This document shows positions 16,186 to 28,324 of a DNA stretch of 64,000 bases, piece after piece. Source of the DNA: Candidatus Latescibacterota bacterium (GTDB lineage: Bacteria; Krumholzibacteriota; Krumholzibacteriia; WVZY01; JAKEHA01); contig CAVTNQ010000002.1 in the NCBI GenBank assembly GCA_963736125.1, forward strand, positions 292,989 through 356,988, read 5' to 3'. The position numbers and the translations under genes were made by a program. The notes beneath the pieces were generated by a model. It saw nothing but the letters and a program-made list of their open reading frames with translations. It was not told the origin of the DNA and did not search any database. The first letter of the stretch is position 1. Each line of letters begins with the position of its first letter.

Positions 16186-17147
16186 GCGCGTGGATCGGCG
16201 TCGACATCGGCGGCACCAACATCAAGATCGCGACCGTCTCCGCGACGGGCGCCGTCCTCGCGCGCGGAGTGGTCGAAACACGGGCCGGTGAAGGGCCGGC
16301 GGCCGCCTTCCGTCGCATCCACGAGGCTGCGCGTTACCTGGCCGGTCGGCAGTCGATCGCGGGTGTCGGCATCGGCTGCGCGGGCCTGATCGACGCCCGC
16401 CGCGGCCTCCTGCGCGTGTCACCCAACCTACCCGCGTGGAAGGGCGCACCCCTCGCGCGCCTCGCGCGCGCGCATTTTCGACTGCCCATCGCGATCGAGA
16501 ACGACGCCACCAGTGCCGCCTTCGGCGAGTCCTTCGTGCGCGGCGAACGCGGTCGCCATTTGGTGTTCATTACCTTGGGAACCGGGGTGGGCGGTGGGAT
16601 CGTGGCCGACGGGCGCGTGGTGCGCGGGGTGTCGGGGTTTGGTGGCGAGATCGGCCACATGACCGTCGACCCCAACGGGCCCACGTGTCGATGTGGCTCA
16701 CGCGGTTGTCTGGAGGTGTACGCGGGGTCGTACGGGATCGTGCGCGCGGCTCGTGAGGCCGCGAAGGCGTCCGCTAAGGCGCGGCGCGCCCCGCTGGCGC
16801 GACGACTCGGCGGCCGCTCCGTCAGCGCGCGCGACGTCCTCGACGCCGCTCGCCGCGGCGATGTCGTCGGGCGCGCAGCGGCCCGTGTCGCCGGCGAGCA
16901 CCTCGGCCTTGCGATCGCGTCGATGCTGAACGTCTTGAATCCCTCCGCGGTCGTGATCGGCGGCGGGGTGGCGGGCGGCTTCGACGTCTTGGCGCCCCAC
17001 GTGCGGCGCGCGGTCGCGCGCTTCGCCTTCGCCGACACGGCGCGCGCGGCGCGCATCGAGCCCTCGCGACTGGGCAACGACGCCGCCGTCGTGGGAGCGG
17101 CGATGCTCGCGCGCTTCAACACTCGCCCTGCCAGGAAGACCCGGTGA
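16182..17147 (+). CDS. ROK-family sugar kinase (glucokinase-like)
   Basis: IGVDIGGTNIK N-terminus; the ROK zinc motif CRCGSRGCLE; TTG start overlaps the folC stop; the ORF-track N-terminal extension is spurious. Confidence 0.75.
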   Translation: MSAWIGVDIGGTNIKIATVSATGAVLARGVVETRAGEGPAAAFRRIHEAARYLAGRQSIAGVGIGCAGLIDARRGLLRVSPNLPAWKGAPLARLARAHFRLPIAIENDATSAAFGESFVRGERGRHLVFITLGTGVGGGIVADGRVVRGVSGFGGEIGHMTVDPNGPTCRCGSRGCLEVYAGSYGIVRAAREAAKASAKARRAPLARRLGGRSVSARDVLDAARRGDVVGRAAARVAGEHLGLAIASMLNVLNPSAVVIGGGVAGGFDVLAPHVRRAVARFAFADTARAARIEPSRLGNDAAVVGAAMLARFNTRPARKTR

Positions 17148-20100
17148 GTCGTCCGAAAGTCTTCGGTGTGCTCGCGTGGTTCGCGGCCCTCGCGTGGTGG
17201 GGAACGTTCCCCTTGCGCGCGCAGATTCCGACCATCTCACCCGCGGTGTTCTACGACGTCCGCGCCGACCAAAGCCTCCTGAAGAAAGTCGGCGATGAAA
17301 CCGTGCTCGAGCTCACGGGCAACGTGCGCGTCGTCCACGGCGACGTCACCATCACCGCCGACCGCGGGTTGAACTACGCGACCCAACGCCTCACCCAGCT
17401 CTTCGGACACGTGCGCGCGGTGCAGCAAACGCTGGTCATGACCGGCGACGAGGGCGAGTATCGCCAGCTCGAAGACCTCGCCATCGTGAAGAAGAACGTC
17501 CACATCGTCGACGAAGGCTGGCAAGTGACGTGCGACGAGGTGCGCTATTCGCGCACCCAAGACGAGGCCTGGCTCATCGGTCACGTGGTCGGGAAGGACT
17601 CCACGTCGACCATGCACGCCGACCGCGTCCTCTACCAGCGCACCATCGGGCGGGCCGAAGCGTTCGGCAAGGTCGAGATCACCGACGACAAGCAAAACTT
17701 GATCGTGCGCGGCAAGCACGGGCTGTTCTATCGCGACCGCGGCGAAGGGGTCGTCGACCGCGAGCCCAAGCTCATCTCCGGCCCCGACGACCCCGAGCCG
17801 ATCACCGTCGTGAGCGACACCATGCGCGTGTTTCCCGACTCGTCGCGCGCCACTGCGTACTACCGCGTCAAGATTATCAAGGGCAACACCGTCACACAGT
17901 GCGACTCGGCCATGCTCTACGACGACCGCCATCGCGTCGAGTTGTACGGCCACCCGCTCGCCCAGCAAGACAACGTCGCCATGAAGGGCGACCGCATGGT
18001 GGCGTTCTACAACGAATCGGAAGTCCACCGCATCGACATCCTCGGGAGTGCCTCGATCACCGAGGCGGTGCGCGATTCGATGGTGGTCGGTCGCGACAGT
18101 TGGATCCAGGGCGACTCCATCACACTCTACTTGCACGAAGGCGGCGTCGACTCGGTGCGCGTGCGCGGCAAGGCGAAGAGCGAGTACTTCCCCAAGAATC
18201 CCAACAAGGTGGAGGGCAACTCGATCGAAGGCAACAACATGTTCTTCAAGTTCGGGCCCAAGGAAATCGAGTTCGTCGACGTGAAGGGCGGGGCGTCGGG
18301 CCTTTATCGTTACATCAATCTCAAGCGCGGCGAAACCCCCGACAGCCTGCGCGCGGCCGGCGACACCACGCTCTCCTACGTTGCGTTTCCGCAGAAGGCG
18401 GAGCGCGTCGAATACGCGGCCGAGCGCATTCGCTACTTCGCCGATAAGGAAGACCTTGTCCTGGATCAGAAAGCGCGCGTCGACTACAAGAACAGCCGCC
18501 TCGAAGCGGACAACATCACCTATCACGCCTCGCTGCAGGTGCTCGACGCCAGCGGTTCGCCGACGTTGACCGACGCCGGCCAGGCCATCGTCGGGCACCA
18601 GATGGACTACGACCTCGACAGCGGGACCGGGCTGGTTACCGAAGGGTCGACGTCGTACGGCCCGGGCTTCTACAGCGGCCAGGACATGGCCAAGGTGGGG
18701 GAGAACGAGCTCAAGGTGTGGAACTCGGTGTACACGACGTGCGACTTGAAAGAGCCGCACTATCACTTCGCCGCCAAGCACATGAAGGTATATCCGGACG
18801 ACAAGGCCTTCACCGGACCCATTTGGTTGTACATCGGCAAGACGCCCATCTTCGCGCTCCCCTTCATGGCCAACAGCATCGCGCGCGGACGGCATTCGGG
18901 ATTCTTGCGCCCCAACTTCGAATTCGGTATCACGAGCGCCAACGGGCGCTACTTGAGCAATCTCGGTTACTACTGGGCCACCAACGACTACACCGATTTT
19001 ACCTTTGCCGGCGACTTCTACGAAGACTCGCGCTGGCGACTGTACGTCGGGAATCGTTACGCCTTGCGCTACAAGTTCAGCGGGGGTGTCAACTACAACT
19101 ACGTGCGCGACATCGGCGACAATACGACCGAGTGGACGCTCGACGGCATCCACGACCAGACCCTCGGCGAACGCTTCACGTTGAATGCGAGCCTGCGCTT
19201 CGTCTCGAGCGACGCCGCCCCGCAGAGTGTCAATCGCATCGACGACGTCCAGCGCTACATCGACCGGTCCATTCGCTCGACGGTGGCCTTGCGCAAGAGT
19301 TGGAACACGGTGGGATTCAGCGCGTCGGCCAGCCGCACGCAGAACCTCAACATCGTCGACCCGACCGCGATCGTGCAGACCTCGACCTTGCCGAGCGTCC
19401 AACTCTCGATCCCGTCGTGGAACCTCTACTTCGGCGACGAGTCGAAGCCGACCGAAGGCTTGTGGCAGAGCCTGGGGCGCAACACGCGCGTATCGCCCTC
19501 GCTGTCGTTCAATCGGACGGTGCGGGAGAAATTGTTCGAGAACGACGACGTTTCGGCGGCACTCGCGCAGGCCTCGATGCAGAGCCCGCAGAAGATCGGG
19601 TTCGTTACCATATCGCCGTCGATATCGGCCAACCTGACGTCGACGTATGTCGACTACTCGCGCGAGGCGTACCAGTACTATCGAGGTTCGGGCAGCACGA
19701 TCGACACGGTCTCGGTGACAGCACTCGATTCCACTCTCACCGAAAACGTCTTCACGTGGCGCACGGGTGTGGGCGCCAACACGAACATCTTCGGCACCTT
19801 CTATCCCAACCTCGGCCGCTTGCACGGTATTCGTCACACCCTCACACCGTCGGTGAATTACTCGTACACGCCCTCGCAGGACGGACGGCCGCGCTCGCAG
19901 GCGGTGGGTTTGAATCTGCGCAACGCGATCGACTTGAAGATCGCCGGCAACGAAGCGGACACCACGGCCACCGACCAGGAGAAAATGAAACGGCTGTCGG
20001 GTGTCGTGATTTGGAACCTGTCGAGTGCCTACCGGCCGGACACGCCGCTGGCGCGCGCGTGGAGCCCGATCTCGAGCGCGCTCAATTTCGTCTTGTTCGG

Positions 20101-20707
20101 AACCAACTTCTCCATCAATCACACCATCGACCCGTACCATTTCGACGTCACCTCCACGAGTGCCACGTCGACCATCCGCATCGGCGGCACGCACCCGTTC
20201 GGGTCCTCGTCGAAGGTCGAGGTCAAGGAGCTGAACGTGACCGCGTCGCGCGACACCGCGAACGCGGACAACAAGAAGAACGGGGACTTCGCCTCGGGCG
20301 GGGTCGAATTTCGGCAGATCAACCAGGAAGGCGTCGAGGAACCGGTGGAACAGCAGGATCTCCAGCTCGAAGAGAAGCGCCAGCCGTGGAACGTCGTGCT
20401 GGGGCTGTCCTACTCGAGCAACGCGTCGGGTGCCACCAGCTCGACCTTGCGCGTGGGATGGGACGTCAAACTCACCGACAACTGGCGCATCGACTATTCG
20501 ACCATCTACGACGTCGAGGCGCGCGAGCGGTCGGGGCAGCACATCGGCGTCACGCGCGACCTCCATTGCTGGGAGATCGGGTTCTCGCGCCAGCAGCTCG
20601 GCACCGAGTGGCAGTATTACTTCCGCATCGCGCTCAAGGCCCACCCCGAGTTGTATGGCGAATCCGGCAACCGCGGCGTGGGGAGCGGTCTTATGGGGCA
20701 ATTCTAG
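17144..20707 (+). CDS. LptD-like outer-membrane protein (OstA family: N-terminal repeated OstA/LptA-like jellyroll plus large beta-barrel)
   Basis: Signal peptide; repeated OstA-type motifs (LTGNVRVVHGDVTITAD, VVGKDS...ADRVLY, LIVRGKHGLFY); long aromatic-rich C-terminal barrel ending in F; 1187 aa. Confidence 0.5.
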   Translation: MSRPKVFGVLAWFAALAWWGTFPLRAQIPTISPAVFYDVRADQSLLKKVGDETVLELTGNVRVVHGDVTITADRGLNYATQRLTQLFGHVRAVQQTLVMTGDEGEYRQLEDLAIVKKNVHIVDEGWQVTCDEVRYSRTQDEAWLIGHVVGKDSTSTMHADRVLYQRTIGRAEAFGKVEITDDKQNLIVRGKHGLFYRDRGEGVVDREPKLISGPDDPEPITVVSDTMRVFPDSSRATAYYRVKIIKGNTVTQCDSAMLYDDRHRVELYGHPLAQQDNVAMKGDRMVAFYNESEVHRIDILGSASITEAVRDSMVVGRDSWIQGDSITLYLHEGGVDSVRVRGKAKSEYFPKNPNKVEGNSIEGNNMFFKFGPKEIEFVDVKGGASGLYRYINLKRGETPDSLRAAGDTTLSYVAFPQKAERVEYAAERIRYFADKEDLVLDQKARVDYKNSRLEADNITYHASLQVLDASGSPTLTDAGQAIVGHQMDYDLDSGTGLVTEGSTSYGPGFYSGQDMAKVGENELKVWNSVYTTCDLKEPHYHFAAKHMKVYPDDKAFTGPIWLYIGKTPIFALPFMANSIARGRHSGFLRPNFEFGITSANGRYLSNLGYYWATNDYTDFTFAGDFYEDSRWRLYVGNRYALRYKFSGGVNYNYVRDIGDNTTEWTLDGIHDQTLGERFTLNASLRFVSSDAAPQSVNRIDDVQRYIDRSIRSTVALRKSWNTVGFSASASRTQNLNIVDPTAIVQTSTLPSVQLSIPSWNLYFGDESKPTEGLWQSLGRNTRVSPSLSFNRTVREKLFENDDVSAALAQASMQSPQKIGFVTISPSISANLTSTYVDYSREAYQYYRGSGSTIDTVSVTALDSTLTENVFTWRTGVGANTNIFGTFYPNLGRLHGIRHTLTPSVNYSYTPSQDGRPRSQAVGLNLRNAIDLKIAGNEADTTATDQEKMKRLSGVVIWNLSSAYRPDTPLARAWSPISSALNFVLFGTNFSINHTIDPYHFDVTSTSATSTIRIGGTHPFGSSSKVEVKELNVTASRDTANADNKKNGDFASGGVEFRQINQEGVEEPVEQQDLQLEEKRQPWNVVLGLSYSSNASGATSSTLRVGWDVKLTDNWRIDYSTIYDVEARERSGQHIGVTRDLHCWEIGFSRQQLGTEWQYYFRIALKAHPELYGESGNRGVGSGLMGQF

Positions 20708-20839: not shown

Positions 20840-21133
20840 ATGAACAAAACCGAATTGATCGAACGCGTAGCTCAGAAGACAGGGCTCACGATGAAAGATG
20901 CCAAGAACGTCGTCGACGCGATTTTCAGCACGCAGCCCAAGAACGGCATCATCGCCAACGAGCTCAAGTCGGGTCGCAAGGTTCAGATCACCGGCTTCGG
21001 GACATTCGTGATCCGTCGGCGCAAGAAGCGCGAGGGCAGGAACCCGCAGACGGGCGCGACCATCGAGATTCCAGCGACCAAGTTCCCAGCCTTCTCCGCG
21101 GGCCGTGCTCTGAAGGACCGCGTCAAGGTGTAG
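20840..21133 (+). CDS. hup: DNA-binding protein HU
   Basis: [12 protein letters not shown]...GFGTF...RNPQTG...IPA, the canonical HU/IHF fold; 97 aa. Confidence 0.9.
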
Positions 21134-21158
21134 GGACCCGGCAGTTAGAGAACTGCTC

Positions 21159-21198
21159 GGCAGGCGGAGCGCGAAACAGCGCCCCGCCTGCTTTTTTG
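21159..21198 (+). terminator. Rho-independent terminator after the HU gene
   Basis: GCAGGCGG ... CCGCCTGC GC-rich hairpin followed by TTTTTTG. Confidence 0.7.
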
Positions 21199-21365
21199 TT
21201 GCCCGTCCGCGGGGCGTCGCATCGGGGTCTCCGTCCACCACTCTGCGCGCAATGGTGAATTCCTACGCGCTTTCCGAGTGAGTTCCCGTCGACCCCCGAT
21301 GCAACGCCCATCGCGGCAAGCTGCCGGGACGGGCTTCGACGGAATGGTGTATATTCAACCTCGTT

Positions 21366-22826
21366 ATGCGCCTACGGAACGGCATCGCAATCGGGTTGGC
21401 GGCCCTCTTCGGGCTGGGAGCCGCCCAGGCCCCCCCGTCGGGCGAGGCGCCCAAGCCCGCCACCTCCGTCGTCATCCCCAACGCCCCCTGGAATCCCGAC
21501 CTTCGCCTGCTCTACGAGAGCGACACCCGCGCCTACTACCGTCCTTGCGGATGCAGTGCCAACTCGGCGGGCGGTCTTTCGCGACGCGCGGCGCTTTTGA
21601 ATGATTTGCGCGCGCAATCGGCGCCGGTCGTCTTGTGCACCGCGGGCGATTTCTACGGCACCGCCGACATCTACAACGAGGCCAAGTCGCACTTCGTCGC
21701 GCGCATGATGGACGTGCTCGACTACGACGCCGTCGGGGTGGGCGAGATGGACTTGAACTTCGGCCTGGCGGCACTGGTTGCCGACGTGCGTGCGCTTCGA
21801 CTTCCGGTCGTGTGCGCCAACTTGAACGTCAAGGCCGATTCGCTGCGCGTGCGCAGCGGCGGCCCGGCCGCGGCCGCGGCCGATCGACTCGGCTCGGCTT
21901 TTCCTCCCTACGTCGTCGTCACCAAGGCCGGCTCGCGCTTCGGCTTCTTGGGGTTGATATCGCCGGCCACGCGCGTGAAACCGGTCGCGAAGAAGAACGC
22001 CCCCGTCGAAGCCGTCACGTTTTCATTCGCCGACCCGATCGAAGTCGCGAAGGCGGTGGTTCCCGAGTTGCGCAAGTCGTGCGACGTGCTCGTCGTCCTG
22101 GCGCACATGGGCGAGGACGAAGCGACCGCACTCGTGCAGGCGGTGCCGGGCATCGACCTGGTGGTTCTCGGACACGACCCGCAGGGACGGCCCCTGGGCC
22201 AGCCGGAGAAGGTCGGCACGGCGTCGCTGCTTCGCGGTACCGCGCAGGGCCAGAACATCGGCGAGCTCAACGTCAAGCTGGGCGCCGACCACCGCATCGC
22301 CGACTCGTTCAATGTCATTCATATCATGGACGAGTCGTACCGCGACGATCCCGAGATGACCAAGCGCGTGCAGGGCTTCGACGAAGAGAACCGCAAGAAC
22401 CAGAAGGCGCTCTTCGCGCGTCAGGAAATGCAGAACGACGAAGCGGGCCGGCCCTTCGCCGGGAATTACCTCGGCGTCGGCGCGTGCCAGTCGTGTCACG
22501 CGGAAGCGTTCAATGTCTACACGCATACGCGCCATGCGCACGCCTACTCGACCTTGGCGTCGCAGTTCGTCCATCGCGACACCAACTGTGTCGGCTGCCA
22601 CGTGACCGGCTACGGCGAGGCGGGCGGTTTCGAGGGTGTCCGCTTGCGCGGTGCCAGCGTCGACTTGATCGACGTCCAGTGCGAAGCCTGCCACGGCCCC
22701 GGCGCCAACCACGCGCGCGACGGCTCCTACAAGGCGGCGGCACTCCAGAGTTGTGTCAAGTGCCACACGTCCAACGACGACCCCGATTTCGATTTTGCAA
22801 CCGACTGGCCCAAGATTGCGCACTAG
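21366..22826 (+). CDS. Secreted fusion protein: degenerate metallophosphatase/5'-nucleotidase-like N-domain plus C-terminal tetraheme cytochrome c (cytochrome c554-like)
   Basis: Signal peptide; the N-domain resembles the calcineurin-like phosphoesterase fold but has substituted metal ligands (AGDFYG, GEMDLNFG); the C-terminus carries four CxxCH heme-binding motifs (CQSCH, CVGCH, CEACH, CVKCH). Confidence 0.65.
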   Translation: MRLRNGIAIGLAALFGLGAAQAPPSGEAPKPATSVVIPNAPWNPDLRLLYESDTRAYYRPCGCSANSAGGLSRRAALLNDLRAQSAPVVLCTAGDFYGTADIYNEAKSHFVARMMDVLDYDAVGVGEMDLNFGLAALVADVRALRLPVVCANLNVKADSLRVRSGGPAAAAADRLGSAFPPYVVVTKAGSRFGFLGLISPATRVKPVAKKNAPVEAVTFSFADPIEVAKAVVPELRKSCDVLVVLAHMGEDEATALVQAVPGIDLVVLGHDPQGRPLGQPEKVGTASLLRGTAQGQNIGELNVKLGADHRIADSFNVIHIMDESYRDDPEMTKRVQGFDEENRKNQKALFARQEMQNDEAGRPFAGNYLGVGACQSCHAEAFNVYTHTRHAHAYSTLASQFVHRDTNCVGCHVTGYGEAGGFEGVRLRGASVDLIDVQCEACHGPGANHARDGSYKAAALQSCVKCHTSNDDPDFDFATDWPKIAH

Positions 22827-23595
22827 GCTCGTCCTCGGCGTTCTCGCCGCGCTATCGATGGGGTCGACCCAAGCGCGCGGCGCCGACGCCGGGTCGGTAC
22901 TCCTACCCGGCATCGACATCCGCACCATCGACTTCAAGGTGGGGGCGTGGTGCCGGTATGTCGTCGTCGACGAGGCGATGGACGTCGTCGACTCGAGCGG
23001 GGTCTACATCGCCGTGGTCGGCAAGGAGAAGACGCCGCGCGGGACCGCCTACTGGCTGGAGATCGAGAGCGGGCCGTTGTCGTCCGCCCCGGCCGACCGC
23101 GACGTGGCCCGGACCCTGGTCGACGAGGGGGTCCGGACCATGGCCGACGGCGACTCGCTTTACCGGTATGTGAGTCGGTATTACATTAGGAGGGGCCGCG
23201 AACCGGTCGAACCCGGCGACGTCCACGACTTGATGCGGCTTACGATCGTTTCCCCCACTTCCGATCGCGATTGGGTCGTCACCCCACGGACCACCGTCTC
23301 GACTCCGGCCGGCAAGCTTCTATGCGAGTCGCGCCGCTTCGAGAAGACCGAGAGCAACGAAATCCCGTCGGGGCGCGTAAAGATCGTGCAACGACGGACC
23401 GACCGCGTCGAAGTATGGACCTCGAGCGCGGTCCCCGTTTTCCACCTGGCCCGATGCGTGGTGGAACGCGAGCGCGAGTCCAAGACGGTACCGGCCGTGC
23501 GCGGCATCCCCGACTCGGGCTCGCGGCGGTCACGGACGACTAGCGTCGTCGTCGCCTACGGTATGGGCGCGAAGTCGCTCGTCTCGTCCCCCTGA
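22816..23595 (+). CDS. Hypothetical secreted protein (signal peptide), overlapping the end of the cytochrome gene
   Basis: TTG start inside the cytochrome stop region; N-terminal LVLGVLAALSMGSTQA signal peptide; no recognisable domain. Confidence 0.4.
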   Translation: MRTRLVLGVLAALSMGSTQARGADAGSVLLPGIDIRTIDFKVGAWCRYVVVDEAMDVVDSSGVYIAVVGKEKTPRGTAYWLEIESGPLSSAPADRDVARTLVDEGVRTMADGDSLYRYVSRYYIRRGREPVEPGDVHDLMRLTIVSPTSDRDWVVTPRTTVSTPAGKLLCESRRFEKTESNEIPSGRVKIVQRRTDRVEVWTSSAVPVFHLARCVVERERESKTVPAVRGIPDSGSRRSRTTSVVVAYGMGAKSLVSSP

Positions 23596-23633: not shown

Positions 23634-26003
23634 ATGCGCCTCTCCTCGCGATGGCTTTCCGGCGTGGTCGTGGTAGCGAGCCTGTGCGTCGGTGCCGCCG
23701 AACGCGCCGCCGCGGACGACGTGCAGCTCTTTTCGATGCGGCCGGCGGTGTCCTTGGCCGGTGCGGAGCGCACGTACTGGATCGGAAGCGGTGCGTCCGA
23801 CGAAGAAGCGCTGGCCCTGCGCGACGCCTTGGTCGCAGCCGGTGCGCGCAACGTCAACCTCTTCGTGCCCGACATGGTCATCGTGTGCGACGTCCCGCCG
23901 TCGGTGGCGAGCGACGTCGCGCGCGTCGCGACGACGACGGCGTTTCGGTCGTACAGCGAACGCGCCGTGCGGGCCACCAGCGGCGCCGGTGCCTCGTGGG
24001 GATGGATCGTCGACGCCTACGCACTTGCCGAGCTCGACCCGCTCGACGAAGGCGGCGACGCTCCGGCAGCGAGCGGAAACGACGCGGATTCGTTCCACGA
24101 CGTCGTGCTCACCATCGACCCGGATCGCGTCGAGGCGATCCAGCGCGAGATCGAGACCGCTCGCCGTCTCGACGTCAACGCCACGCGCCCGCCCATCACA
24201 CGCCGCATCAATCAGAACTCCGAGTTTCTCGGCGGCTACATCCTGGCCAGCTTCATCTTCCCTGAAAGCAACAGCGCGCGCGAGCTGAGCTACGAGGATT
24301 GGACCGACGACGACCTGACTGCCGCGCGGGCGGGCGGTGCCGCGGCCATGATTTCGTGGCAGCGATTCGCCCAGATGAATATCAACTACGTGCTCAGCTT
24401 CTACCCGCTTATCCCGACCGGCTACGAGCCCATCACGCACGACATGAACAGCGACGAGTTGTGGATCGTCGACACGATGCACGCGATGGGGTGGGGACTG
24501 TTTTCGGACAACTCGCAGGGCATCGTGCACGAATTCAACGAGAGCGAGCGCGCGCACTGGCGCACCCAGTGGGCAGTCACGTCGTTCATCGCGAACAGCC
24601 GCAACACGCAGGACCATCGTTTCAAGAGCGGTTTGGCGAACTACACCGCGTATGCGTTCCTGGGCGGCCCGTACATGGTGGAGCCGTTTCCGGCCGGCAC
24701 CGACCCCAACCTGATCGGCGAGGACCTCGTGTACTCGCAGATCGTGAACCACGAAGTCGGCCACCTGTTCTGGACGCTGGACGAGTATCCGGGCTCCCCG
24801 GGTGTATGTACCAACCACTCCGGCTATCTCAACGTCCCCAATGGTAATCAAACCATGACCGATCCGAGCGGCGCGCAAGGGCGTTGCGAGCCCCTGACCC
24901 CGTGCATCATGCACACGGCCACGCGCTTCAACCAGGCACGCCCGTGGTGCCAGTACTCCAAGATGCACTTGGGTGTGGGCGACGATAACGGCAATGGGCT
25001 GCCCGACATTTTCGAAGCCGAGCCGGAGATCACGTTTTCGCCCGCGGGACCCGAGACGCTCACCACCAACACCTACACGCTCCGCTTCCACGTCAAGGCG
25101 CACGCGGTGCCCAACCAGAATCCCTATCAAGGATCCGATCAACGGGTGAGCTACGCCTTGCCGCTCGACGGGGCCAAGCTGGTGCTGGGCTCGCTCACGA
25201 TCAACCTCGATGCCCTCGACGGGCACTGGGACGGGCTCGAAGAAGACTGCGAGTTCACCGTGGGCTTGTCGCAGGTGGGGCAAGTGGCGTTCATCGTGCA
25301 GGCGTACAACGAGGTCAATTTCAAGTCGACGCCCGCCATCAAGACGGTCTATTTCGCCGGCGTGCGCTACGACCGGGTGGTAGCGCTCCCGAAGTGGAAT
25401 CGCATCGACGTCGCGTGGGAGACCACGGGCGAGACCTTCGGCGCCAAGTTCGACGTGTATCGCCTCGAGCGCGGGCAAGCCATGCCCGGGACGCTGGTGG
25501 CGCAGAACGTCTACCCGTACGCGACGAGCTCGCAAGGTCAGCCGATGTATCAGGTGCACGACTTCAACGTGACGGCGGGGACCGATTATCGCTACTACAT
25601 CGACGGCGTGTTCGATCTCCCCTTCGATGGCGGAACCAAGCAGTACTCGTCGCCATCGGAAATCGTGGGACAAACCGCGATGATCCAAGTGGTCGACGTG
25701 GTGTCCAACTTGGCTCCCAATCCGACGCGAGGGACGGTGACGTTTTCGGTCGCGGTGCCGAAGTCGTTCGACCAAACGCCGCGGGGGCCGTCGCGCATTC
25801 CGACCGACGTCGACATCCGCGTGTACAACGTGCGCGGGCAACTGATGCGCACGTTGAAGCGCTCGGGCGAGTTGAACAGTGTCGTGACGATGCGTTGGGA
25901 CGGCACCACGCAGGACGGCGACCCCGTGCCCTCGGGCGTCTATTTCCTCCGCGTCAAAGCCGGCGACACCGAATCGGTCCGCAAGATCGTGCTGCTGCGC
26001 TGA
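23634..26003 (+). CDS. Secreted zinc metalloprotease (HExxH) with a T9SS/FlgD-like C-terminal sorting domain
   Basis: Signal peptide; HEVGHLFWTLDEY zinc-binding motif; the C-terminal about 80 aa match the Por_Secre_tail/FlgD-Ig pattern (NPTRG..., VYNVRGQLMRTL, WDGTTQDGDPVPSGVYFLRVKAGD...KIVLLR). Confidence 0.65.
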   Translation: MRLSSRWLSGVVVVASLCVGAAERAAADDVQLFSMRPAVSLAGAERTYWIGSGASDEEALALRDALVAAGARNVNLFVPDMVIVCDVPPSVASDVARVATTTAFRSYSERAVRATSGAGASWGWIVDAYALAELDPLDEGGDAPAASGNDADSFHDVVLTIDPDRVEAIQREIETARRLDVNATRPPITRRINQNSEFLGGYILASFIFPESNSARELSYEDWTDDDLTAARAGGAAAMISWQRFAQMNINYVLSFYPLIPTGYEPITHDMNSDELWIVDTMHAMGWGLFSDNSQGIVHEFNESERAHWRTQWAVTSFIANSRNTQDHRFKSGLANYTAYAFLGGPYMVEPFPAGTDPNLIGEDLVYSQIVNHEVGHLFWTLDEYPGSPGVCTNHSGYLNVPNGNQTMTDPSGAQGRCEPLTPCIMHTATRFNQARPWCQYSKMHLGVGDDNGNGLPDIFEAEPEITFSPAGPETLTTNTYTLRFHVKAHAVPNQNPYQGSDQRVSYALPLDGAKLVLGSLTINLDALDGHWDGLEEDCEFTVGLSQVGQVAFIVQAYNEVNFKSTPAIKTVYFAGVRYDRVVALPKWNRIDVAWETTGETFGAKFDVYRLERGQAMPGTLVAQNVYPYATSSQGQPMYQVHDFNVTAGTDYRYYIDGVFDLPFDGGTKQYSSPSEIVGQTAMIQVVDVVSNLAPNPTRGTVTFSVAVPKSFDQTPRGPSRIPTDVDIRVYNVRGQLMRTLKRSGELNSVVTMRWDGTTQDGDPVPSGVYFLRVKAGDTESVRKIVLLR

Positions 26004-26163
26004 CAAGGCGTCGCCGCGCGGTGCGCCGCGTTTGCGTTGGCCCTACCAATGTGATATACCGAAGCCTGCGGACACGCTAGCGACGCGCGTCCCGACACTC
26101 TTCTCGCGAACTACCCGACGATCCAAGGAGGAAGGCGCGACCCGGTTGCGCCAAAACGACCGC

Positions 26164-27162
26164 ATGAGCGACCGACTACGCCGCGTCAAATACGCCGACT
26201 CCGTTCTCGACACCATCGGCAACACGCCACTCGTCAAATTGAACCGCGTCACCGCCGGTGTGAAGTGCACAGTGCTCGCGAAGCTCGAACAATTCAATCC
26301 CGGCGGGAGTGTCAAGGATCGCATCGGGGTCCAGATGATTCGCGCCGAAGAGGCGAAAGGAACGCTCAAACCCGGCGGGACCATCGTCGAGTGCACGTCG
26401 GGCAATACCGGCCTGGGGCTCGCACTGGCGGCGTCGATCCTGGGATACAAATGCGTGTTCACGATGCCCGACAAAGTACCCCTCGAAAAGGAGTACATGC
26501 TCAAGGCATACGGCGCCGAAGTGATTCGTTGCCCGACCAACGTGGCACCGGAGTCGCCGGAAAGCTACTACTCGGTAGCGAAGCGCCTGGTGCAAGAGCG
26601 ACCGGGTGCCGTTCTCGGCAACCAGTACCACAACCCCATGAACCCGGAAGCGCACTACCGGACGACGGGTCCCGAGATCTGGAAGGACACGCAAGGCGAG
26701 ATCGACTATTTCGTCGCGGGTGTGGGAACGGGCGGGACCATCAGCGGCACCGCGCGCTATCTCAAGGAACAGAACCCGAAGGTGAAGGTGGTCGGCGCCG
26801 ACCCCGTCGGCAGTTTGTTGACACATTATTTCTATACCAAGGAACTGATCGAGGCGCACCAGTACCTGGTCGACGGCATCGGCGAAGATTTCGTGCCGAG
26901 CACCTGCCAGTTCCAATACGTCGACGACATGATCCAAGTCGGCGACCGCGATTCGCTCATCATGACGCGGCGGCTCGCGCGCGAGGAAGGTCTCCTGGTG
27001 GGCAGCTCGTCGGGCGCGGCCCTGGTCGCAGCACTGCAGGTAGCGCGCGACCTCGACGCCGACAAGATCATGGTGGTGCTGATCCCCGACACCGGTGAGC
27101 GCTACTTGAGCAAGGTGCATTCGGAGCCGTGGCTCGCGCAGCACGGGCTCGCGGGGATCTAG
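26164..27162 (+). CDS. PLP-dependent cysteine synthase / cystathionine beta-synthase-like enzyme (no CBS-pair domain)
   Basis: TIGNTPLVKLNR and the lysine-loop region; GNTG; GVGTGGTISG motifs of fold-type II PLP enzymes (CysK/CBS); ATG at 26164 within the longer ORF. Confidence 0.75.
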   Translation: MSDRLRRVKYADSVLDTIGNTPLVKLNRVTAGVKCTVLAKLEQFNPGGSVKDRIGVQMIRAEEAKGTLKPGGTIVECTSGNTGLGLALAASILGYKCVFTMPDKVPLEKEYMLKAYGAEVIRCPTNVAPESPESYYSVAKRLVQERPGAVLGNQYHNPMNPEAHYRTTGPEIWKDTQGEIDYFVAGVGTGGTISGTARYLKEQNPKVKVVGADPVGSLLTHYFYTKELIEAHQYLVDGIGEDFVPSTCQFQYVDDMIQVGDRDSLIMTRRLAREEGLLVGSSSGAALVAALQVARDLDADKIMVVLIPDTGERYLSKVHSEPWLAQHGLAGI

Positions 27163-27190: not shown

Positions 27191-28324
27191 ATGGGCTTCT
27201 ACACGGATTGCATCCACGCCGGACAGTCATCGGACGACAAGACCGGTGCGGTCATCACGCCGATCTTTCAGACCTCGACCTACCAGCAGGACGGCATCGG
27301 CAAGCACCGCGGCTACGAATACGGGCGCACCCAGAATCCCACGCGCGAAGCACTCGAGCGCAACGTCGCCGCCCTCGAAGGCGGCAAGCACGGGCTCGCG
27401 TATTCGTCCGGGATGGCGGCCACCGACACGATTCTGCGCCTGTTCGGTCCGGGCGACGAAATCGTCGTCACCCACAACGTGTACGGCGGTACGTACCGAC
27501 TGTTCGAAATGGTACTGAAGCAGTACGGGCTCGTGTTTCGGTTCGTCGACACGGCCGAATTGCACGAAGTCGAGCGAGCGCTCTCACCCAAGACCAAGCT
27601 CGTCTATCTCGAATCGCCCACCAACCCGATGCTGCGTGTCACCGACATTCGCAAGGTGGCGGATAGAGCGCACGCGGTCGGCGCGCGCGTGTGCGTCGAC
27701 AACACCTTCATGAGCCCGTACCTGCAAACGCCGCTCGCACTGGGCGCGGACTTGGTGGTGCACAGCACGACCAAGTTCCTGAACGGGCACAGCGACATGG
27801 TGGGCGGCATCGTCATCGTGAACGACGACGCCACGGCACAGCGCCTGCGCTTCCTGCAGAACGCGGTCGGTGCGGTGCCCGGTCCGATGGACTGCTTCCT
27901 GGCGCTGCGCGGGACCAAGACCCTCGCGGTCCGCATGCGCCAGCACGAGGAGAATGCGCGCGTCTTGGCGCAGTTTCTCGCGGGTCACAAGGGTGCGAAG
28001 ACCGTCAACTATCCGGGTCTACCCGATCATCCGCAGCACGAGCTCGCGACGCGACAGGCGCGCGGATTCGGTGCGATCATTTCGTTCGACCTCGGCTCGC
28101 TCGAGCGCGCCGACCACGTGCTGCGTTCCGTGAAGTTGTTTACGCTCGCCGAGAGCTTGGGCGGTGTGGAAAGTTTGATCAGCCATCCGGCGTCGATGAC
28201 GCACGGCAGCGTGCCCGAAGCGGACAAGCTCAAGCTCGGTGTCACACCGGGACTCGTCCGCATCTCCGTCGGCATCGAAGACGTCGAAGATCTGCAATCC
28301 GACCTCGATCGCGCAATGCGTTGA
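27191..28324 (+). CDS. Cystathionine gamma-synthase / gamma-lyase (Cys/Met metabolism PLP-dependent enzyme)
   Basis: IHAGQ...TPIFQTSTY N-terminus, the SxTKFLxGH PLP-lysine motif and the GGVESLI region typical of the MetB/MetC/CGL family. Confidence 0.8.
   Translation: MGFYTDCIHAGQSSDDKTGAVITPIFQTSTYQQDGIGKHRGYEYGRTQNPTREALERNVAALEGGKHGLAYSSGMAATDTILRLFGPGDEIVVTHNVYGGTYRLFEMVLKQYGLVFRFVDTAELHEVERALSPKTKLVYLESPTNPMLRVTDIRKVADRAHAVGARVCVDNTFMSPYLQTPLALGADLVVHSTTKFLNGHSDMVGGIVIVNDDATAQRLRFLQNAVGAVPGPMDCFLALRGTKTLAVRMRQHEENARVLAQFLAGHKGAKTVNYPGLPDHPQHELATRQARGFGAIISFDLGSLERADHVLRSVKLFTLAESLGGVESLISHPASMTHGSVPEADKLKLGVTPGLVRISVGIEDVEDLQSDLDRAMR

Follow-up and report, generated by a model that had tools for sequence, protein, structure and literature searches.

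The window analysed here, a 64,000-nucleotide stretch of Candidatus Latescibacterota DNA (contig CAVTNQ010000002.1, positions 292,989 to 356,988), features an open reading frame, ORF1 (21366–22826, forward strand; ATG at 21366, TAG at 22824–22826), that encodes a protein of 486 amino acids. ORF1 is the Cys form of a catalogued family of UshA-like (seleno)proteins, which join a 5'-nucleotidase-like N-terminal domain (N-domain) carrying a Cys-Gly-Cys or Cys-Gly-selenocysteine motif to a C-terminal tetraheme domain. The N-domain is probably, with a likelihood that we put at roughly 60%, a catalytic (seleno)thiol redox module coupled to the c-type hemes. An initial annotation described ORF1 as a secreted fusion of a degenerate metallophosphatase fold to a c554-like tetraheme domain, with the N-domain acting as a non-catalytic binding module in periplasmic electron transfer. 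The signal-peptide-like N-terminus (MRLRNGIAIGLAALFGLGAAQA) supports the secretion, phmmer, Foldseek and Pfam support the fusion, and the electron-transfer role is reasonable. The fusion is not novel, however, as it is already modelled as NF041198 and has been listed as COG0737 UshA-like, CxU since 2008, and the family's defining motif, Cys61-Gly-Cys63, was overlooked. The binding-module description conflicts with this motif, which is invariant as C-G-C/U and contains selenocysteine (U, Sec) in about half of the family.

NF041198 (UshA_like_PCGU, 'UshA-like (seleno)protein') is the top NCBIfam match of ORF1 (E 2.5e-71, 240.8 bits). It is also the top match for nine relatives from other phyla, which score 202–352 bits with several lineages below 275. 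The model combines a UshA-like N-domain with a C-terminal multi-CxxCH region, and ORF1 has the same architecture; model positions 356–518 (of 519) align to ORF1 residues 320–477, the heme region. The family motif is P-C-G-U or P-C-G-C, and ORF1 contains P60-C61-G62-C63 at 21543–21554, with Cys61-Gly-Cys63 read directly from the codons TGC GGA TGC (21546–21554, forward strand). Cys63 occupies the selenocysteine position of the family and its TGC codon is one base from TGA; ORF1 has no Sec there and no family-type hairpin resembling a selenocysteine insertion sequence (SECIS). The family name itself allows Cys forms. Previous work reported 76 Sec and 92 Cys sequences of the COG0737 UshA-like, CxU group in the Global Ocean Sampling (GOS) data (Zhang & Gladyshev 2008, PMC2398784), and the family is listed under NF041198 in PMC13188914 and also appears in PMC9312934.

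The alternation between Cys and Sec is seen directly in two syntenic relatives, L001 and L002, which share the gene order of the window (Mur ligase, ROK, LptD, HU, family gene, ORF2 homologue) and feature an in-frame TGA exactly at the position of ORF1 Cys63 ('...YYRPCG*HNNAAGG...'). In both L001 (5812–7221) and L002 (5782–7206) an open reading frame of 46–48 amino acids precedes the called gene, and the full-length gene is recovered by readthrough across the TGA. Public gene calls cut Sec forms in this way into a stub of 46–48 amino acids and a 'multiheme cytochrome' of ~400 amino acids (L001, L002, P0023–P0120). Because the Sec forms are split at the in-frame TGA, neither the C-G-U motif nor the signal peptide is present in most database entries. 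The public data hold a protein identical to ORF1 (P0001) and 388 ORF1 homologues in total, of which ~20 have the intact length; most others are ~400 amino acids long with 82–84% query coverage.

The initial annotation had proposed looking for homologous fusions in other genomes, and 86 family genes from many phyla were reconstructed from 83 loci and the window. The motif codon is TGA in 42 of the 86 genes and a Cys codon in 44. A hairpin with an apical loop starting with GG or GU lies 22–32 nucleotides past this codon in 36/41 TGA forms versus 5/45 Cys forms, a contrast that is descriptive, as the position and loop criteria were chosen after inspection. The loop is either GGC/GGA, at +32, or GGUCU, at +22; ORF1 has neither, and the placement of the hairpin fits bacterial SECIS geometry. 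Sec and Cys forms cannot be told apart by the total folding energy of the sequence that follows the codon (Mann-Whitney p 0.83); they differ only in the hairpin's position and loop type. The closest Cys-form relative fetched (L004, 81% identical to ORF1) features a GUCU-loop hairpin at +23 after its Cys codon, which may be a SECIS remnant that was lost in the window gene. No tRNA, and hence no tRNA-Sec, was found in the 64-kb window. To our knowledge, Sec in bacterial proteins is almost always located at a redox-catalytic position.

The N-domain (~residues 45–328; 21498–22349, forward strand) has a 5'-nucleotidase-type metallophosphatase fold. A phmmer search against the PDB found the Thermus thermophilus 5'-nucleotidase 2z1a (E 5e-16), followed by the venom and human CD73 enzymes. 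The AlphaFold2 (AF2) model of ORF1 has a predicted local distance difference test score (pLDDT) >90 across residues ~40–330, and in a Foldseek search of the PDB alignments of ~320 columns to 3ive, CD73, 2z1a, UshA, and SoxB reached E ~1e-18, which bears out the proposed relation of the N-domain to metallophosphatases. Profile matches are weaker: Pfam Metallophos scores 16.7 bits, under its 21.5-bit cut-off, and the NCBIfam models for SoxB and cyclic-nucleotide phosphodiesterases match weakly. SoxB (TIGR04486) is the second-best NCBIfam match (E 7e-18), with 64.2 bits versus a cut-off of 550, and ORF1 has an incomplete set of the ligands that make up the dimanganese site of SoxB.

Residue-level alignment of ORF1 with 2z1a reveals which of the former metal ligands are retained. 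In motif I (NDTHAH in 2z1a, SDTRAY in ORF1) Asp53 is kept and the His is replaced by Arg55. In motif II (DAGD in 2z1a, TAGD in ORF1) Asp95 is kept (21648–21650, forward strand). In motif III (GNHEFDLG in 2z1a, GEMDLNFG in ORF1) Glu127-Met128-Asp129 (21744–21752, forward strand, with Glu127 at 21744–21746) takes the place of the Asn-His-Glu of GNHE, so that the Asn becomes Glu127 and the catalytic His becomes Met128. Two later histidines are kept, His247 (SHLG in 2z1a, AHMG in ORF1; 22104–22106, forward strand) and His270 (GGHS in 2z1a, LGHD in ORF1; 22173–22175, forward strand). The D-x-H of motif I and the G-N-H-(E/D) of motif III are thus replaced by D53-T-R55 and G126-E-M-D129, and the G-D of motif II and both downstream histidines are present. 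The initial annotation was correct in equating GEMDLNFG with GNHEFDLG; however, AGDFYG aligns with motif II (DAGD) and not with a GDxHG motif. Its view that the canonical ligands are replaced applies to the motif I His and to GNH, but not to Asp53, Asp95, His247, and His270.

The N-domain is followed by a linker helix (residues 329–359; 22350–22442, forward strand; AF2 secondary structure) located where 5'-nucleotidases have their inter-domain helix, and Foldseek alignments to UshA reach ~350 columns. The substrate-binding C-terminal domain of 5'-nucleotidases has no Pfam match in ORF1; residues 370–486 are instead of the Cytochrome_C554 type. This c554-like tetraheme domain (22473–22823, forward strand) matches Pfam Cytochrome_C554 (PF13435; E 6e-14, 53.2 bits versus a gathering threshold of 20.8) and the Nitrosomonas cytochrome c554 structure 1bvb (E 1.9e-9), which supports the initially described c554-type likeness at the level of sequence. 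The four heme motifs are confirmed: CQSCH (22485–22499), CVGCH (22587–22601), CEACH (22680–22694), and CVKCH (22752–22766), all on the forward strand, lie within the final 115 residues, together with three additional histidines, His390, His449, and His486. ORF1 is the only open reading frame in the window with more than one CxxCH motif. Heme II of c554 is five-coordinate.

The family is large. A scan of species-representative genomes found at least 569 relatives among the 600 pattern matches listed, from many phyla that include Krumholzibacteria, Latescibacteria, Eisenbacteria, Acidobacteriota, Myxococcota, Nitrospinota, Armatimonadota, and others, with cultured Hyalangium and Myxococcus strains among the carriers. 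Conservation was determined from an alignment of 85 family sequences. The C-G-C/U motif is invariant (85/85), and invariant or nearly invariant positions comprise C61, G62, C/U63, G69, G70, G94, E440, the four CxxCH motifs, H390, H449, and H486. Position 129 is acidic (Asp or Glu) throughout the 85 sequences, and conservation is highest in the heme domain. With four hemes but only three invariant non-motif histidines, one heme lacks a conserved distal His. The former metal-ligand positions are variable: 38 sequences have Asp and 26 have Asn at position 95, Glu127 is found in 31, and His247 and His270 in 26 each. Asp95, Glu127, His247, and His270 behave as an all-or-none set, which is jointly present in 25/85 sequences and jointly absent elsewhere. 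The 25 carriers come from ~ten lineages in all, namely the window's Krumholzibacteria/Latescibacteria clade, where the set is nearly invariant, and scattered lineages with single members in Chitinivibrionia, Armatimonadota, Gemmatimonadota, Nitrospinota, Zixibacteria, Chromatiales, and Hyalangium. This pattern suggests that the window subfamily may retain a single (mononuclear) metal site next to the Cys pair; such a site cannot be the core of the family function.

The combination of export, a dead phosphatase scaffold, an invariant C-x-C/Sec motif, the use of Sec, and a four-heme replacement domain is the reason for reading ORF1 as a putative (seleno)thiol oxidoreductase. In this mechanism ORF1 would be exported to the periplasm, which is consistent with its predicted Sec-pathway signal peptide (21366–21431, forward strand), an N-terminus that is kept in full-length homologues; export is needed for c-type hemes. 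The N-domain keeps the 5'-nucleotidase fold and would have lost the phosphoesterase chemistry. The Cys-Gly-Cys, or Cys-Gly-Sec in about half of the relatives, lies in the loop that follows the first strand, at the point where motif I normally continues, and the c554-like tetraheme domain takes the place of the nucleotide-binding C-terminal domain on the same kind of linker helix. The active site of 5'-nucleotidases is located at the interface of the two domains, so the hemes would be expected to lie opposite this former cleft and to face the CGC loop. At Cys61/Cys63 a periplasmic substrate would undergo two-electron thiol/disulfide (or selenol/selenenylsulfide) chemistry. The four hemes would carry the electrons singly, in one direction or the other, between this site and soluble redox partners in the periplasm, which would make the protein a (seleno)thiol:cytochrome c oxidoreductase. 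In the window subfamily, Asp95-Glu127-His247-His270 may hold one metal ion beside the cysteines. Candidate substrates are low-molecular-weight thiols (cysteine/cystine), protein disulfides, and inorganic sulfur or selenium species. A mechanistic precedent is offered by MauE, whose disulfide-generating active site is a CGC carried on a flexible loop that faces the periplasm (bioRxiv 10.64898/2026.03.05.709764). The likeness to MauE would be an analogy of mechanism, not of family.

Several points weigh against this mechanism. The ORF1 score falls short of the 275-bit equivalog cut-off of NF041198. The AF2 model has low confidence for the CGC loop (residues 60–68) and for the heme domain; AF2 models no hemes, and the pLDDT is <50 over residues 361–451. 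Clustering of the 83 loci revealed no redox partner or substrate-related gene that is conserved beside the family across phyla, and no experimental or functional study of any family member was found in the literature searched. Lastly, the retained Asp-Glu-His-His set could mean that the cysteines are metal ligands rather than a redox pair.

This last point leads to the alternative that survives best, although we consider it unlikely. The Cys/Sec pair would then ligate either a metal, together with Asp95, Glu127, His247, and His270, or the heme that lacks a distal His. The result would be a metal- or heme-(seleno)thiolate centre acting on small inorganic compounds, for example oxyanions of sulfur, selenium, or nitrogen, like the His/Cys hemes of sulfur-oxidising cytochromes. 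The all-or-none behaviour of the tetrad in ~ten lineages and its near invariance in the window's clade are consistent with a metal site, and the rank of SoxB among the NCBIfam matches points in the same direction. The shortage of invariant non-motif histidines is consistent with a heme ligand, as is the alignment of heme motifs 2 and 3 to c554, with its five-coordinate second heme. However, the 60/85 sequences without the tetrad keep C-G-C/U and the hemes, so a metal is not the universal core of the mechanism, and no sox, dsr, or other sulfur-oxidation genes were found near the family loci.

The (seleno)thiol redox mechanism also has to be weighed against two readings in which the Cys pair has no redox role. 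If the N-domain were a non-catalytic module for docking a partner or substrate, the tetraheme domain alone would act as a plain electron shuttle, which would agree with the loss of the phosphoesterase catalytic residues and with the highest conservation being in the heme domain. This is highly improbable in view of the invariant C-G-C/U motif, the Sec in half of the family, and the SECIS-like hairpins, and heme-less, stand-alone CGC domains occur as well; we know of no case in which the costly incorporation of Sec is kept for mere binding. Least probable is a protein that has kept its metal-dependent hydrolase activity (as a 5'-nucleotidase or a SoxB-like thiosulfohydrolase) and simply acquired a cytochrome domain. 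In favour of this reading, 4 or 5 of the 7 ligand positions hold possible ligands in the window subfamily and there is weak similarity to the SoxB and cyclic-nucleotide phosphodiesterase models. Against it, the catalytic GNHE His and the motif I His are lost to Met128 and Arg55, the substrate-binding domain is absent, the SoxB score is far below its cut-off, and the ligands are not conserved across the family.

The stand-alone domains were found in an exhaustive search with the N-domain only, which returned 7,326 proteins at E <= 1e-3, 1,488 of them at E <= 1e-10, and the top 150 representatives were classed by architecture. CGC without hemes was found in 36/150, which are stand-alone proteins of ~300–340 amino acids with signal peptides, and CGC with four hemes in 19. 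Another 16 have four hemes without the motif; these are 377–465 amino acids long and start after the motif position, which suggests that they are N-truncated Sec forms. Ordinary GNH(E/D) nucleotidases account for 28, and 51 have neither CGC, hemes, nor GNH(E/D). GNH(E/D) is absent from every CGC-bearing representative among the top 150. Two proteins of ~1,200 amino acids (P0191, P0195) have the CGC at ~residue 811–815 and four CxxCH motifs behind an N-terminal extension of ~800 amino acids.

In metagenomes, scanned with a narrower alignment of the stand-alone forms as seed, a Sec-plus-heme gene recurrently lies directly beside a gene for a heme-less Cys paralogue, on either side. Such tandems of a Sec-heme gene and a heme-less Cys N-domain paralogue are found at L087–L093, L097, L115, L116, L120, L125, and L133. 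The paralogues could form a relay or a heterodimer, and stand-alone CGC domains in tandem with a Sec-plus-heme paralogue are as expected for a thiol relay. A second recurrent order in the metagenomes is a Sec-plus-heme gene, a PALP gene, a gene for a Cys/Met-metabolism pyridoxal phosphate (PLP) enzyme, and a Cys-plus-heme gene.

In the window, ORF1 is preceded by genes for an LptD-like protein (17144–20707, forward strand), which at 1187 amino acids is unusually long and has LptD_N/OstA and LptC-like segments, and for HU (20840–21133, forward strand). An intrinsic terminator (21160–21197, forward strand; a stem followed by UUUUUU) separates ORF1 from these genes. The terminator was not picked up by a consensus terminator scan and was detected by folding the region 21134–21215 (-42.2 kcal/mol, z -3.65). 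As this strong terminator ends the HU gene, ORF1 is not expected to be co-transcribed with LptD-HU.

ORF1 is followed by ORF2 (22816–23595, forward strand), which encodes a secreted hypothetical protein of 259 amino acids with an 11-nucleotide overlap with ORF1 if it starts at TTG 22816. The start candidates are GTG 22753, TTG 22795, TTG 22816, and ATG 22858. A conserved hydrophobic signal segment is encoded at 22828–22854 and is included only by starts at or before 22816; there is no start codon from the ORF1 stop to ATG 22858, so an ORF2 that bears the signal must start at or before 22816 and overlap ORF1 by at least 11 nucleotides. A near-identical public protein of 259 amino acids fits the TTG 22816 start, and an alternative gene call from ATG 22858 gives 245 amino acids without the signal. 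The overlap of at least 11 nucleotides is likely but not proven; the reading frame that runs to 23595 does overlap the end of ORF1, as described initially, but its exact start is ambiguous. A Tat-type (twin-arginine translocation) signal, TG[P/R]RLRT, was considered for ORF2 and rejected because it is the out-of-frame image of the DWPKIAH end of ORF1, and the residue at its variable position is Pro in the window, not Arg. Within 22795–22826 a synonymous change of a Pro codon in ORF1 toggles Pro and Arg in the ORF2 frame. Because TG(P/R)RLRT mirrors the conserved ORF1 C-terminus, its conservation is uninformative on the ORF2 start.

The ORF2 protein features a LolA/RseB-like open (unclosed) beta-barrel, which is a lipid-carrier fold, and has no match in Pfam or NCBIfam. 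Its 63 homologues are all hypothetical, and the few with organism labels are from Krumholzibacteria. It shares the open beta-barrel fold with LolA, LolB, RseB, MucB, and LppX; however, the identity is 5–14%, no membership in these sequence families was detected, and ORF2 is clade-restricted, lying directly downstream of the family gene solely at 15 Krumholzibacteria/Latescibacteria loci. The suggestion that the overlapping gene encodes a redox partner was rejected, since the protein has no heme or CxxC/redox motif, has a LolA-like fold, and is confined to this clade.

Further downstream lies a gene for a secreted protein of 789 amino acids (23634–26003, forward strand) with an HEVGH zinc-protease-like motif and a C-terminal type IX secretion system (T9SS) sorting/FlgD-Ig-like domain. 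A gene for a 796-amino acid protein is found at the equivalent place in L002, and no gene is called there in L001. The next two genes encode a PLP enzyme resembling cystathionine beta-synthase (CBS; 26161–27162), whose best model is TIGR01137 with 455 bits, below cut-off, and an enzyme of the cystathionine gamma-synthase/lyase type (27191–28324; NF005871, 517.7 bits versus a cut-off of 513). LptD-HU upstream and the PLP pair downstream recur beside ~30% identical family genes in Eisenbacteria and related lineages. LptD, with HU at some loci, lies upstream of these ~30% identical UshA-like genes at L018, L020, L022, L031, L033, L035, L037, and L040, and in Eisenbacteria-type loci the PLP pair lies between two UshA-like paralogues (L098, L099, L105, L109, L112, L114, L152, L158). 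The LptD-HU...CBS/gamma-lyase synteny is common to related phyla of the Fibrobacteres-Chlorobi-Bacteroidetes (FCB) type and may be an inherited gene order; the position of the PLP pair between paralogues hints at a connection with cysteine metabolism without proving it. Neighbours in Myxococcota (rpsP, a KH-domain gene, rimM, and trmD on the other strand) and in Acidobacteriota (a DUF721-like gene and maf), both identified by eye, were taken as unrelated housekeeping synteny and rejected as functional partners.

A broader proposal, which is tentative and rather unlikely to hold as a whole, is that the UshA-like C-G-C/U tetrahemes form an unrecognised, widespread periplasmic thiol-redox system. 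In such a system a (seleno)Cys pair, borne by a nucleotidase scaffold that is no longer active, would trade electrons directly with c-type hemes and, through them, with the respiratory chain; the heme-less paralogues would be mobile relay partners, and the window subfamily would be a metal-assisted variant. Candidate roles would be the oxidation or reduction of low-molecular-weight thiols (the cysteine/cystine pool, given the conserved CBS/gamma-lyase neighbours) or of protein disulfides. The interest of the family comes mainly from its orphan status, as it is large and has been listed among selenoproteins since 2008 and no functional study was found. There is also an annotation artefact: most database entries lack the catalytic motif, with Sec forms split by gene callers. 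The window gene on its own is an ordinary Cys-form family member. We know of no characterised system in which periplasmic thiols are linked directly to c-type cytochromes, and (seleno)thiol-heme coupling, if true, would be such a link.

Compared with known systems, ORF1 is a further Cys-form member, scoring below cut-off, of a known and functionally unstudied family and not a new fusion. It shares with NF041198 family members the signal peptide, the 5'-nucleotidase-like N-domain with P-C-G-U/C, and the C-terminal region with four CxxCH motifs; it differs in having Cys (TGC) where the name-giving members have Sec, and its clade retains the Asp-Glu-His-His set, whereas most family members lack it. 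The 5'-nucleotidases (E. coli UshA, 2z1a, human CD73) and SoxB resemble ORF1 in the N-domain fold, the linker helix, the GG-x-x-R-R helix start, the motif II Asp, and the two late histidines. In contrast to these enzymes, ORF1 has replaced the motif I His and the Asn-His of GNHE, features a tetraheme domain in place of the substrate-binding domain, and has an added CxC/CxU motif. Nitrosomonas europaea c554 (1bvb/1ft5) likewise has four CxxCH motifs and three extra conserved histidines for four hemes, with similarity over heme motifs 2 and 3 (CVGCHVxGxGxxGG ... CExCHGPG). However, c554 is a free-standing carrier that takes electrons from hydroxylamine oxidoreductase, and in ORF1 the corresponding module forms the C-terminal part of a larger protein that resembles an enzyme. 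CxC-based disulfide catalysts that face the periplasm or the mitochondrial intermembrane space include Mia40, with its CPC, and Erv2, with its CGC tail. In common with the CGC loop of MauE, these place Cys-x-Cys in a flexible segment and pass electrons to a respiratory acceptor, a likeness that indicates a possible working mode only. There is no sequence or fold relationship between these catalysts and ORF1, and the acceptor in ORF1 would be covalently bound c-type hemes instead of a quinone or flavin.

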